A stretch of DNA of 64,000 nt from Capsulimonadales bacterium (GTDB lineage Bacteria; Armatimonadota; Armatimonadia; Armatimonadales; Armatimonadaceae), in the NCBI GenBank assembly GCA_033762295.1, contig JANRLW010000064.1, positions 109,214 through 173,213 on the forward strand. Reading direction: 5' to 3'. Positions 36,891 through 41,025 of this stretch are shown one piece after another. A program made the translations under genes and the position numbers. The first letter of the stretch is position 1. Each line of letters opens with the position of its first letter. The notes below the pieces were generated by a model. That model did no database searches. It worked only from the letters and a program-made list of their open reading frames with translations, and had not been told where the DNA came from.

Positions 36891-36954
36891 ATACGACCGG
36901 GGACCGATCTTTTCTCGAACGGAGGCGGGGGAACGGTTCCCGGAAGGTGTGCAA

Positions 36955-36975
36955 TATACCCCCGGGTGGTATAAT
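36955..36975 (+). promoter_or_regulatory. CsoR-type operator overlapping an extended -10 promoter
   Basis: TATACC-CCCGGGT-GGTATA inverted repeat around a C/G tract; TG-G-TATAAT at 36967-36975. Confidence 0.7.
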
Positions 36976-36981
36976 GCCTCC

Positions 36982-37470
36982 GTGACACAGCGTGGATTCC
37001 GGTTCCGGCTCCCGATCGCGGTGATTCTGGCGGCTTTCCTTATCGGATCGCTACCATTGCCGCAAGTGCGGGCAATCTATCGCCCGCACCGGCCCGGTGC
37101 GACGACCGTTGGGACGACCGTTGCGACGACCGTTGCGACTCCCAATTCGGCCCGGTGCGCGATGAAGGCGGCCGGGAAGCCGTGCTGCTGTCCGTCGGCG
37201 CTCGCCGGGCCGACCGGGGACACCCCTTCCGAGGAGGTGGCATGTCCTTGCGCCCTGGGCTCCGGCGAACCCCTGCCACCCGACCCGACGACCTCCGTTC
37301 CGGTGTCTCCTTCCCCGGCGGACTCTCCGACGCGAAGTCACATCTGCACGCCGGCGAATCGGGGGCAGGAGCCTCCGCTTTCGCCGGCGACCAACTTCGA
37401 CCCCGTCCCCTTCCGATCCGGAGAGCGTCCGCCCGACGCCGGACGCGCCCCGCCTTCGCCTGACGCGTAA
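36982..37470 (+). CDS. Cys-rich leader protein with C-terminal RAPP motif (DUF2946/CruR/CutF-like)
   Basis: GTG 6 nt after -10; hydrophobic N-terminus; C..KPCCCP...CPC; Pro-rich tail ending GRAPPSPDA*. Confidence 0.7.
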   Translation: MTQRGFRFRLPIAVILAAFLIGSLPLPQVRAIYRPHRPGATTVGTTVATTVATPNSARCAMKAAGKPCCCPSALAGPTGDTPSEEVACPCALGSGEPLPPDPTTSVPVSPSPADSPTRSHICTPANRGQEPPLSPATNFDPVPFRSGERPPDAGRAPPSPDA

Positions 37471-37529
37471 CGTTGTCTCGGCGGCCTGTTTTCGCGCCGC
37501 CACCGTGTCCACGCTCAGGAGAGGTTTCC

Positions 37530-38705
37530 ATGCTACGTTCCTTTTGGGTTGCCTTGCTCGGCATCGCCCTTCTTTCGTTGCCATCGCCCGTCCGCGCGCA
37601 GGGGAAAAACCCTGTCGAATCGTCAGGACGATATCGTGTCGAACTGCGACTGCCTCCGGCCGGCGTCTATGCCGGAGAGGAGATCGATATCGAATTTCGT
37701 GTGACCGATACCGCAAAAGCCGACCCGGTTCTCGGTGCGCCCGGAGTCATCCGCGCGCGGATCAAAGCGGCGGTGACCATGCCCTCCATGGCCGGGATGC
37801 CGGCGATCGTTCCGAAGATCCATTCCGAAGGGGTGCCCGGTGACTACGGTCTGGTCGCGACCTATCCCCACGGCGGGGAGTACCGGATCGCCCTCAGTAT
37901 CACGCCGCCCGGGTCCGAAAGTCCGTTCACGGTGGCGTTCCTCATTGATGTCGGGGATGCGGACGCGCGGCCGAAAGGGCGACCTGTGAACGCTCCGTAC
38001 CGCCTCGACGTCAGGTCCAAACCCGAAAAGCCGACCGGGCAGCAGCCGGTCGATCTCGCTCTGCGGGTCCTCGAACGCGCCACAGGCAGGCCGGTTACCG
38101 CGTTCGAGATCGTCCATGAGCAGCCGATGCACCTGATCGTGGTTCGTGAAGACCTCGGGGCGTTCTTCCATGAGCACCCGACACGGAACGAGGACGGAAC
38201 GTTCACCCATCGCTTCACCTTCCCGTCCGGCGGGTTGTGGCGGGTGTTCGGGGATGTCGCGCCGGTCGGCGCGGGCAGTCAGGTACTGGCAACGACCATC
38301 AAGGTCAACGGACCGGTGCCGCCCAGAGCGCCGCTGACGACCGTCCGCGGACCGGTCACCGATCGGGAACTGACACTGACCTTTCCGACGGATCGCCTGC
38401 CGGAACGCACGCTGTTTCCCTGGACCTTCGACCTGAAGGACTCGGCCGGGATGCCGATCACCGATCTTCAGCCGTGGCTCGGCGCGCCCGCCCACCTTAT
38501 TCTGATTTCCGGGGATGGCGAAACGTTCGTCCATTCCCACCCGGATGAGTCCGACCCGAAGAACGGAACCAACGGCAAACTGACCTTTCTCGTCCGGTTC
38601 CCCCGATCGGGCATCTTCAAGGGGTGGCTCCAGTGCCAGCGGGCGAACGAGATCCGGACGCTGCCCTTTGTCGTGCGGGTGCAGGGGAAGGCGGCGAGCC
38701 GATGA
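37530..38705 (+). CDS. Periplasmic His/Met-rich heavy-metal-binding protein (YtkA/FixH-like plus two Ig-like domains)
   Basis: Signal peptide; MPSMAGMP; HEQPMHLIVV...FFHEHP; WLGAPAHL...FVHSHP. Confidence 0.75.
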   Translation: MLRSFWVALLGIALLSLPSPVRAQGKNPVESSGRYRVELRLPPAGVYAGEEIDIEFRVTDTAKADPVLGAPGVIRARIKAAVTMPSMAGMPAIVPKIHSEGVPGDYGLVATYPHGGEYRIALSITPPGSESPFTVAFLIDVGDADARPKGRPVNAPYRLDVRSKPEKPTGQQPVDLALRVLERATGRPVTAFEIVHEQPMHLIVVREDLGAFFHEHPTRNEDGTFTHRFTFPSGGLWRVFGDVAPVGAGSQVLATTIKVNGPVPPRAPLTTVRGPVTDRELTLTFPTDRLPERTLFPWTFDLKDSAGMPITDLQPWLGAPAHLILISGDGETFVHSHPDESDPKNGTNGKLTFLVRFPRSGIFKGWLQCQRANEIRTLPFVVRVQGKAASR

Positions 38706-40618
38706 GCGATTTTCGTTGCCGCTACCTGCCGTTCGTCGTGCTTCCGTGGGTGCTTCTGATTGCGCTGCTCGGAGGACCGAGCTCGGCGTCGGCGGCGCAT
38801 CCGCCGAAGAAGGGCGTGAAACGTCCTCCCTCAAAAGCGGCCGCGCAGATCCGCGCGGCCGGACAGCGGATCGACGCGGCGAAAAAGCGATTGCGTGCGG
38901 AGGGGAAGTACGGCTGCTGTCTCAAACCGGCAGCCGGTCGGACGGTCGGGGGCTGTGAGCATTGTCTGAAAACCGCGGGGGAATGCCGCTGTGCCGCGAA
39001 CCTTCGGGCGGGCAAAGGGGTGTGCGGACAGTGCGTCGCCGGGTGGAAAGCCGGACAGGGGGCCATCGCCGGCATCGACCGGGACCGGGTCCGATGGTCG
39101 CCGTCCGAGCCGTCCGAGTCGAAAAACGCGGCGACCGAAGTACCCGAACTGATCGAGGCCCGCGAACTCCTGACCATGGCGAAACGAACGATGGTCGCCG
39201 AGGGACGTTACGTCTGCTGTATCGGGGACGGCGGCTGTGACGAATGCGCCCTGGAGGGGGACTGCCCGTGCGGCATCGAACTCAACGAAGGCGCGGAAGG
39301 GCAGGGGGTCTGCGGTTCCTGCTACGACGGCTGGCATGCCGGTCACGGCAGCTTCGAAGGGGTGGAGATTGCGTCGGTACGACTCAACGTCCAGCCGGGC
39401 CACGGAAGCGGGGACGACCGGGACGTGTTCGGAATGTTCGGTGACTGGCGGATGAACCGCGAGGGGTCGGGAACCGCCTGGCTGCCGGACTCCTCGCCCC
39501 TGTACGCGCAAATGACCCGCTGGGGCGACTTCCGGACCATGCTCCACGGGTACGGCTACGGCGTTTACACCGATCAGAAAGCCCGGGGAAACCGGCGCGG
39601 CGACGATGGGACGTTCGTTGCTTCCCAGATCATGGGAATGGCCTGGCAGCGCAAAGGGAATGCGATCTTTGGTGGGCGGATGATGCTTTCGGCCGATCCG
39701 TGGACGATCGGAGATTCGGGCTATCCTCTCCTCTTTCAGACGGGGGAGACGGCGAACGGCCGGCCACTGGTCGACCGCCAGCATCCGCATGACCTGTTTA
39801 TGGAACTGGCCGCCGCCTATACGCAAAGGCTGACACCGAACGGTGGCGCGTTATCGCTATATCTGGCTCCGGTGGGCGAGCCGGCCATCGGTCCGCCCGC
39901 CTTCGCCCACCGACCGTCCGCGTTCGACAACCCCGAAGCCCCGATTTCGCATCACTGGTTCGACTCCACCCATATTACGTACGGCGTGGCGACGGTCGGA
40001 CTGGCGAATCGCGCCGTCAAACTGGAGGGAAGCCTGTTCACCGGGCGCGAACCGGACGAGAACCGGGAACGGTGGGACCGTTTCCGCTGGGACTCGACGT
40101 CCGTTCGCCTGGCGGCGAACCCGACCCGCGATCTGGCGTTTCAGATCAGCCAGGCGTGGCTCCGACGACCGGAAGCCCTGGAACCGGACACCGATCAGCG
40201 GCGATACACCGCCTCCGTCCTCTACAACCGGCCGCTGGCCGAGGGGCGCGCCAATCTTCAATCCTCCCTGATGTGGGCGCGTAATCGGAAGTATGCGCCG
40301 GACCATGCCCCGGCGAACAGCGATGCGCTTCTGTTCGAGACCGCCTTTCTCGCTCCGGAAGGGACTCTGTTCGGAAGGTGGGAACGAACGGACAAGGACG
40401 AACTCTTTCCGGGAATGGAGGACCACCGCGCTTTCCGGGTCAACAAGTTCACTCTGGGAGGCGTTCATAACCTTGCCGCAACGCGCGGAGCGGAACTGGG
40501 TATCGGAGGCAGCGTGTCCGCTTTCTCGATTCCGGCCGGGTTAAAGCCGGACTACGGTTCCTCACCGCTGACGTTCAACCTTTTCCTGCGGCTCCGGTCG
40601 GCGCGGATGATGCACTGA
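38702..40618 (+). CDS. Outer-membrane beta-barrel-like protein with N-terminal tandem 8-Cys domains
   Basis: Signal peptide; two CC..CxxC..CxC..CxxC repeats; REGSGTAWLP, DRQHPHDLFMEL, HHWFDSTHI; amphipathic strands; ATGA overlap. Confidence 0.75.
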   Translation: MSDFRCRYLPFVVLPWVLLIALLGGPSSASAAHPPKKGVKRPPSKAAAQIRAAGQRIDAAKKRLRAEGKYGCCLKPAAGRTVGGCEHCLKTAGECRCAANLRAGKGVCGQCVAGWKAGQGAIAGIDRDRVRWSPSEPSESKNAATEVPELIEARELLTMAKRTMVAEGRYVCCIGDGGCDECALEGDCPCGIELNEGAEGQGVCGSCYDGWHAGHGSFEGVEIASVRLNVQPGHGSGDDRDVFGMFGDWRMNREGSGTAWLPDSSPLYAQMTRWGDFRTMLHGYGYGVYTDQKARGNRRGDDGTFVASQIMGMAWQRKGNAIFGGRMMLSADPWTIGDSGYPLLFQTGETANGRPLVDRQHPHDLFMELAAAYTQRLTPNGGALSLYLAPVGEPAIGPPAFAHRPSAFDNPEAPISHHWFDSTHITYGVATVGLANRAVKLEGSLFTGREPDENRERWDRFRWDSTSVRLAANPTRDLAFQISQAWLRRPEALEPDTDQRRYTASVLYNRPLAEGRANLQSSLMWARNRKYAPDHAPANSDALLFETAFLAPEGTLFGRWERTDKDELFPGMEDHRAFRVNKFTLGGVHNLAATRGAELGIGGSVSAFSIPAGLKPDYGSSPLTFNLFLRLRSARMMH

Positions 40619-40623
40619 CCCGA

Positions 40624-40655
40624 TCGCCGGGATCGGAAGGCTTCGATCCCGGCGA
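40624..40655. terminator. Hairpin between convergent genes
   Basis: TCGCCGGGATCG / CGATCCCGGCGA 12-bp stem. Confidence 0.6.
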
Positions 40656-40662
40656 CGGTGAT

Positions 40663-41025
40663 CTACGGACGGGCGGGCAGGCCCCAGTTGCTCCGGGCGA
40701 TCTCGTTTTTCGTCATTCCGGTGTTACCCACTTCCGCCGCCTCACGATGCGGGTGGTGTTCGGCGATCCCTGCCGAACGATGAGCATAGCGGATGACACG
40801 TTGGGCGAAATCAAGATCGTCCTCGGTCCAGTTTTCCGACTTTTTGTCCAGCAGTTCGAGCACCCGTTCGGCGTGAAACCGACCCGACGGCGTCTCCTCG
40901 CCATCCTCCAGGCTTGCCATCTCCCGTACCTCCCGGTTCGCCGGGTCGATCCAGGCTCGAATGTTGGCCGGGGTATCGGTCAGGGAACGAAACTCCCGGA
41001 CGGTCTCCTTATCCTTCGTCTCCAT
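40663..41025 (-). CDS. DUF3140-like protein
   Basis: EF.....A.I..W...SG....RVLELL.K....WTEDDL.FA.RVI.Y..R...SNWG pattern; overlaps the DUF2945 gene. Confidence 0.65.
   Translation of the reverse strand: METKDKETVREFRSLTDTPANIRAWIDPANREVREMASLEDGEETPSGRFHAERVLELLDKKSENWTEDDLDFAQRVIRYAHRSAGIAEHHPHREAAEVGNTGMTKNEIARSNWGLPARP

Follow-up and report, generated by a model that had tools for sequence, protein, structure and literature searches.

A stretch of 64,000 nucleotides from the genome of a Capsulimonadales bacterium (Armatimonadota; GenBank assembly GCA_033762295.1, contig JANRLW010000064.1, positions 109,214 to 173,213 of the forward strand), here called the window, contains a candidate copper operon of three open reading frames (ORFs) on the plus strand: a leader, P0003 (36982-37470), a secreted protein, P0001 (37530-38705), and a predicted outer-membrane barrel protein, P0002 (38702-40618), the start of which is coupled to the end of P0001 by an ATGA overlap. 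The host genome (5.16 Mb, 94% complete) contains matches to Omp85, which fits an outer membrane (diderm envelope). An earlier, sequence-only reading of the locus as a CsoR-type box, a RAPP leader and an envelope copper operon is supported by the present analysis. The features of the operon are listed below.

36955..36973, unstranded: predicted CsoR type-2 operator, TATACC-CCCGGGT-GGTATA (TAC-N9-GTA with C/G tracts)
36967..36975, plus strand: extended -10 element TG-G-TATAAT, recognized by sequence and overlapped by the operator; the transcription start is probably at or next to the GTG (leaderless)
36982..37470, plus strand: leader ORF P0003 (GTG to TAA, 162 amino acids) with an N-terminal hydrophobic segment, CCC and CPC clusters and a C-terminal RAPP; no Pfam or NCBIfam family
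37444..37455, plus strand: RAPP codons, predicted stall site, positioned by analogy with the toeprinting of CruR (PMC12992588)
37452..37524, plus strand: predicted mRNA helix in which the last leader codons pair with the P0001 Shine-Dalgarno sequence AGGAGAGG (37517-37524), from folding and a cognate-pairing test
37530..38705, plus strand: P0001, secreted three-domain Ig-fold protein of 391 amino acids, with a CrdA/YtkA-like domain 1 carrying MPxMxGM and two repeated His-motif domains
38834..39379, plus strand: two helical 8-Cys domains of P0002, probably periplasmic, of a family that has no Pfam entry and also occurs as a stand-alone secreted protein
39452..40618, plus strand (gene 38702-40618): predicted 16-strand porin-fold outer-membrane barrel of P0002, with near-invariant His and Asp in the long loops 2 and 3

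The palindrome TATACC-N7-GGTATA at 36955-36973 is the single match in the window and is absent from all 100 shuffles. It shows the TAC-N9-GTA dyad and the G/C tracts of a CsoR type-2 operator and agrees with the Streptomyces lividans consensus at 16 of the 20 defined positions (consensus from PMC3902906). The right arm overlaps the TG-G-TATAAT element, so that half of the palindrome is the promoter itself, and the leader GTG at 36982 begins 7 nucleotides past the -10 hexamer; the consensus promoter scan lists nothing here because the -35 hexamer is missing. In the whole 5.16 Mb, there are two perfect sites, one in the window and the other on contig C16, between csoR and copA. A matrix built from six csoR/copA promoter sites, with the test site left out, scores the window box at 28.9 bits, the three C16 boxes at 27.5-33.5 and the next site in the genome at 16.0; outside the csoR-copA locus with its three boxes, the genome has no strong CsoR box other than that of the window.

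The csoR gene (PF02583) is present in a single copy, on contig C16 beside copA. The encoded protein contains Cys36, His61 and Cys65, a Cys-His-Cys set which we take to be the fingerprint of Cu(I)-type CsoR, and CopA contains the CxxC, CPC, YN and MxxSS motifs, presumably marks of Cu(I) proteins. The locus (L001:1813-4600, G000:C16) carries three CsoR boxes, two of them in tandem before copA, and no copZ is seen between its genes. Thus, the genome encodes the Cu-type CsoR on which the sequence-only reading depended and repeats the box before csoR itself and before copA, and the claims of a CsoR-type box and of its overlap with an extended -10 element both hold. Control of the operon by CsoR, judged from these sequences, is very likely.

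The leader is a small ORF, first in its operon, with an N-terminal export signal and a RAPP close to the C-terminus, and in these respects belongs to the RAPP class as delineated in PMC12992588. The hydrophobic segment comprises residues 10-26 (mean Kyte-Doolittle (KD) value 2.4), the Cys clusters are CCC68-70 and CPC88-90 (85-87 and 65-67 residues before RAPP, respectively), and the protein ends in GRAPPSPDA; the leaderless ORF that had been claimed, with its hydrophobic N-terminus, Cys cluster and RAPP end, is present in full. Of the comparison with the DUF2946 leaders typified by CruR and CutF, the RAPP, the Cys residues and the export signal stand, but membership in the family does not: PF11162 (DUF2946) matches neither the window leader at E 1 nor any of 27 related leaders at E 0.1, no related leader exceeds any family cut-off, and the CxxC located 46-49 residues before RAPP in CruR is missing. 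Filing the leader under DUF2946 was therefore rejected for all 28 leaders; by analogy, it appears to work like CruR and CutF without being a member of that family.

The related leaders come from a sample of 40 barrel loci in 38 of the 53 other genomes with a strong match, mostly the best-scoring ones (P0002 has matches in 68 of the 301 genomes of the phylum, 54 of them strong over the barrel). In 27 of the 40 loci, a Cys-bearing R[AG]PP frame precedes the barrel on its own strand, compared with 1/40 on the opposite strand, 1/40 downstream and 0/40 upstream for either control motif; the expectation from the own genome is 0.002 per 6 kb, for a rule (R[AG]PP end plus Cys at set distances) that was written after the leaders had been seen. 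A Cys pair is located 57-71 residues before the Arg in 24 of the 27 leaders, and the other three have a single Cys. The leader accompanies the barrel across the phylum even where the box is missing.

Folding pairs the end of the leader, from the stall site to slightly beyond the stop codon, with the P0001 Shine-Dalgarno sequence. Because a purine-pyrimidine bias could mimic such a helix, every arm was paired with every ribosome-binding region for the window and the 21 of the 27 leaders that have a clear next start. Over these 22 loci, the mean cognate pairing is -14.6 kcal/mol and the mean non-cognate pairing -8.9 kcal/mol; the cognate mean is reached in 0 of 100,000 permutations, a figure inflated by kinship, and the cognate site ranks first in 11 loci. 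A C-rich Rho site of the CruR type may be present as well; a rough look gives C over G of 39:21 near 37382. By analogy with the known RAPP peptides, from which the stalling is deduced, translation of P0001 is most probably coupled to a stall in the leader.

The box is far less regular than the leader. A perfect ATACC-N7-GGTAT is located at the leader start in 5 of the 27 related loci and a one-mismatch version in a sixth; these boxed leaders are scattered over several branches of the barrel tree (24 of the 41 sequences, used only for this purpose), and there, too, the box and a -10-like hexamer overlap. G036 has just two perfect boxes, one at csoR and the other at the leader. The earlier expectation that the palindrome would be conserved at orthologous promoters is thus borne out in part: it recurs in several lineages but precedes only 6 of the 27 leaders, and the double gate is patchy. 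Outside Armatimonadota, CsoR-type boxes lie within 620 nucleotides of the barrel in 4 of 71 loci, two of these beside a P-type ATPase. The L052 and L070 leader promoters carry, at the place of the box, a G-rich variant, ATAGGG...GGGGTAT, that scores low (2.0 and 8.2 bits). The perfect box at the L072 leader promoter (G175:C1:2448133-2448149), in a one-contig genome, may be an orphan box, reflect a gap or belong to another regulator; two csoR queries found no match in G175 (94% complete) or G234 (96% complete).

The three motifs reported for the secreted protein, MPSMAGM, HEQPMH..HEHP and H..HSHP, are all found in P0001. PF13115 (YtkA) matches domain 1 only (35.6 bits, cut-off 25.9); this domain has the CrdA fold and a Met loop that corresponds to the MXXMPGM motif of CrdA, and its nearest structure is a resistance protein. 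The operon had been described as an envelope module unlike CopA, CusCBA or TonB receptors; P0001, however, does resemble known parts, its domain 1 being CrdA/YtkA-like.

P0002 (638 amino acids) consists of two 8-Cys repeats, 35% identical to each other, and a barrel. In the structural model, 16 antiparallel amphipathic strands superpose on solved porins, and the best fold matches are without exception diffusion or substrate-specific porins, whose constriction is formed by loop 3; on this model, a porin fold is highly probable. Loops 2 (36 amino acids) and 3 (33 amino acids) are long and hold six near-invariant His, the barrel strands carry conserved Met and Glu, and the N-terminal extensions of the family are often rich in His and Met (above 15% in 44 of 97). 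Copper is a probable ligand of the pore. The reported two 8-Cys domains, HPHD and HHW segments and ATGA coupling are all in place, as is the terminal MMH, but the latter is not a conserved site: among 150 aligned barrels, any given three-residue C-terminal ending is shared by 3 at most.

No Pfam or NCBIfam family matches P0002, and the named porin families (Porin_4, BBP2, OprP and Porin_2) all stay below their curated cut-offs; its relatives reach only sub-cut-off scores with Porin_4, BBP2 or Omp85, and searches of PDB sequences with the barrel, single or as a profile, found nothing. A TonB-dependent transporter was rejected, given 16 strands in the model as opposed to a 22-strand barrel with a plug and no match to PF00593; the fold lends no support to the automatic name 'TonB-dependent receptor' that two Atlas clusters bear. 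PcoB/CopB, the smaller barrel of copper-resistance operons, is not among the 50 fold matches listed. The 8-Cys domain has no named family in the Atlas; the fold search, dominated by the barrel, barely tested this domain. The domain is also found alone in a secreted Met/His-rich protein (L162-L182), with an ECF-sigma-like gene (by eye) adjoining several of these loci, and similar models exist in Acidobacteriota.

The barrel family counts no fewer than 2,666 clusters at 50% identity, spread over Armatimonadota, Pseudomonadota, Acidobacteriota, Verrucomicrobiota and Bacteroidota, and is represented in culture by Sphingobium baderi (WP_323810883.1) and Pontibacter akesuensis (WP_068840315.1). In 10 of the 38 sampled genomes, csoR and the barrel gene are no more than about 5 kb apart, and where these surroundings were scanned they also contain copA, copZ or a multicopper oxidase; no multicopper oxidase was found in the host genome itself, which encodes a heme-copper oxidase subunit I. 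Ten scanned loci have a YtkA domain fused to the barrel, and other barrels are fused to cupredoxin or heavy-metal-binding domains. Three matches are on plasmids; the two that were examined have a heavy-metal or copper P-type ATPase gene nearby. Across phyla, the leader pattern flags frames in 30 of 80 loci (7 in Armatimonadota, 20 plausible ones among the 71 others and 3 spurious-looking), and in other phyla CxxC or CC leaders precede the same barrel.

Taken together, these observations suggest, with a probability that we put at roughly one half, an envelope operon that is induced by copper excess through two serial switches and whose products take up copper in the periplasm and convey it through the outer membrane by way of a predicted His-lined porin. 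Such an operon would be expressed only at high copper in both the cytoplasm and the envelope. Apo-CsoR would cover the -10 element and be released by cytoplasmic Cu(I), at the same time as from csoR and copA. The leader would be exported while being translated and, as the motif, its conservation and the predicted helix indicate, a ribosome stalled at RAPP would cover the arm that hides the P0001 ribosome-binding site; with Pro codons in the P and A sites, as for CruR (PMC12992588), it would free that site and switch on both P0001 and the coupled barrel. As in CutF, the Cys pair, some 65 residues ahead of the Arg, would by then be outside the ribosome, probably across the membrane, and copper bound to it may prolong the stall; this sign, which is not readable from sequence, was chosen because it agrees with the CsoR input. 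The predicted folds suggest that the CrdA-type Met loop and the His sites of P0001 would take over the copper exported by CopA, that the 8-Cys domains would buffer it at the pore mouth and that the His cluster of loops 2 and 3 would select it in the channel. A role in defence is somewhat favored over import. The direction of transport is the weakest step: a passive pore cannot pump, so that export would depend on CopA loading the periplasm.

Several observations weigh against this scheme. If produced when copper is in excess, a passive pore might let copper enter as well. Of the 27 related leaders, 21 have no box, and G175 and G234 have a perfect and a one-mismatch box, respectively, yet no csoR match. 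Cognate pairing ranks poorly in 6 of the 22 loci (L036, L039, L044, L062, L068 and L072), the permutation test treats related genomes as independent, and the helix of the window itself is no better than shuffles (z -0.87). Outside Armatimonadota, the nearest neighbor is a named metal transporter, oxidase or chaperone in only 7 of 65 loci, and therefore the barrel often stands alone. In Bacillus subtilis, the task of YtkA domains is the assembly of cytochrome oxidase and not defence (PMC13344008), and RAPP leaders also head genes unrelated to copper (PMC12992588).

The barrel might also be a copper-binding sink or metal-site protein with no channel: loops 2 and 3 would act as a plug in the lumen, and metal at the outer membrane would be held by, or react with, the His/Asp cluster together with the Cys domains. 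The length of these loops, their six near-invariant His and the His/Met-rich extensions are compatible with such a role, but the best fold matches, all of them porins with loop 3 as the constriction, and the conserved Met and Glu on the strands argue for a pore, which makes a sink quite unlikely. It is distinctly improbable that the leader is insensitive to copper and monitors secretion or disulfide formation, in the manner of SecM, or another soft metal, so that copper acts through CsoR only, where there is a box. This would account for the lack of a DUF2946 CxxC at the CruR spacing, for the RAPP leaders that precede sec, dsbA and thioredoxin genes (PMC12992588) and for similar leaders of the host genome before a YHS-thioredoxin cluster and a HupE/UreJ gene, but not for a leader that stays with the barrel across the phylum even when unboxed, nor for the CxxC/CC leaders before the same barrel in other phyla.

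A further alternative inverts the physiology: CsoR would permit transcription, high copper on the leader would end the stall and translation, as in CruR, and this band-pass gate would govern copper supply, with the porin importing copper and P0001 delivering it to cuproenzymes like CtaK/YtkA. Copper indeed turns off CruR, the copper RAPP leader studied in most depth, which precedes genes for importers (PMC9426467). Import is also the direction of known copper porins, for instance RopAe (PMC6011978), and YtkA domains help to assemble CuA (PMC13344008). In addition, the genome encodes a heme-copper oxidase subunit I, and most relatives have the leader without the box. Conversely, CsoR boxes mark copper-induced genes, the barrel clusters, among the proteins scanned, with csoR, copZ, copA and multicopper oxidase rather than with Sco/PCuAC, and domain 1 of P0001 is structurally closest to a resistance protein. 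On balance, copper supply is an unlikely function, and induction by copper excess is the preferred reading.

The closest known arrangement is cruR-crtA-crpH of Bordetella pertussis (CruR, Bp2923, DUF2946; PMC9426467, PMC12914433), which likewise combines an exported Cys-bearing upstream ORF with a C-terminal RAPP and an operon with an outer-membrane barrel; arrest by CruR has been shown in vitro (PMC12992588). However, CruR has CxxC 46-49 residues before the Arg (PMC9426467), whereas the leaders described here have CC or CxC about 63 residues before it; the output of CruR is Rho termination instead of the predicted unmasking of a ribosome-binding site; and its barrel is a 22-strand TonB transporter, in contrast to the predicted 16-strand porin with an added CsoR box. 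CutF-CutO of Rhodobacter capsulatus (bioRxiv 10.1101/2025.02.05.636593) shares a secreted Cys leader, a stall that melts the stem at the ribosome-binding site of the next gene and a copper-defence context, but CutF has a PPP stall and CxxxC, belongs to DUF2946 and controls a multicopper oxidase, and the abstract and discussion name no CsoR layer. The type-2 operator with G/C tracts is that of the CsoR regulons of S. lividans and B. subtilis (PMC3902906), and csoR and copA are boxed here as well; the third member here is an arrest leader with a periplasmic and an outer-membrane protein, in a diderm. P0001 differs from CrdA of Helicobacter pylori (PDB 9LL2, for which the literature search found no paper; PMC9182242) and from YtkA/CtaK (PF13115) by two extra His-motif Ig domains and by its partner, a porin rather than an RND (resistance-nodulation-division) pump or cytochrome oxidase. 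With OprP, Omp38, DcaP and RopAe (PF02530, PMC6011978), the barrel shares the predicted 16 strands and long loops, but only 7-12% identity in structural alignments and no Pfam or PDB sequence match; the His cluster in loops 2 and 3 and the fused Cys, YtkA, cupredoxin or heavy-metal domains set the P0002 family apart. RopAe rises under copper shortage (PMC6011978), and both CrtA (PMC12914433) and RopAe belong to other families. The literature search, which did not cover supplements, found no paper that joins CsoR with an arrest peptide, although tables of PMC9426467 or PMC12992588 may list these leaders, and no description of the P0002 barrel family or of an armatimonad CsoR copper system.

Upstream of the operon is an L-fucose isomerase gene unrelated to it, and downstream a convergent DUF3140 gene. 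The latter is faced by a strong hairpin 3' of the operon (about 40617..40663, unstranded; z -5.3) with no U tract, and another hairpin (36897-36943, z -2.3) behind the fucose isomerase gene may insulate the copper promoter. Elsewhere in the host genome, two further Cys-rich RAPP/RGPP leaders of the same spacing class are encoded on the minus strand of L187 (G000:C21:1-6000; stops 4635 and 534). One heads genes for a Cys-rich secreted protein, an HTH_20 regulator and a YHS-thioredoxin, and the other a cut-off gene that by eye resembles an outer-membrane efflux protein; the first leader has an arm complementary to the next ribosome-binding site. Two His-rich leaders on G000:C18 (plus strand, stop 39941, L186; minus strand, stop 4358, L185) have CxxC 45-50 residues before R[AG]PP, a CruR-like spacing, and the L186 leader may be of a nickel type, given the HupE/UreJ protein that follows it. 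Distinct leaders with a HAPP end, an SNHC motif and CCK precede Verrucomicrobiota barrels (L103, L104, L123, L126, L130, L131 and L137), and others end in PPVPPPR.

Each of the regulatory parts is already known; what is new is an uncharacterized candidate copper porin family and a testable two-input gate. More tentatively, the operon may be the prototype of widespread, undescribed, copper-selective and TonB-independent defence porins, in which CsoR, responding to cytoplasmic Cu(I), and a new type of non-DUF2946 RAPP leader, responding to periplasmic copper during export, would form an AND gate, and a CrdA-like shuttle and 8-Cys buffers would feed the pore, providing a route from CopA to the outside without CusCBA. 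CruR and CutF answer copper with opposite signs; a CsoR box on the same transcript is an independent clue to the sign, and the combination of box and leader, a natural two-compartment sensor, makes this question testable. Little is known of how copper gets through the outer membrane when neither TonB nor RND pumps are involved, and the operon provides a concrete candidate, with six near-invariant loop His of the barrel family as mutation targets; if the reading is true, the pore would be a new outer-membrane copper route.

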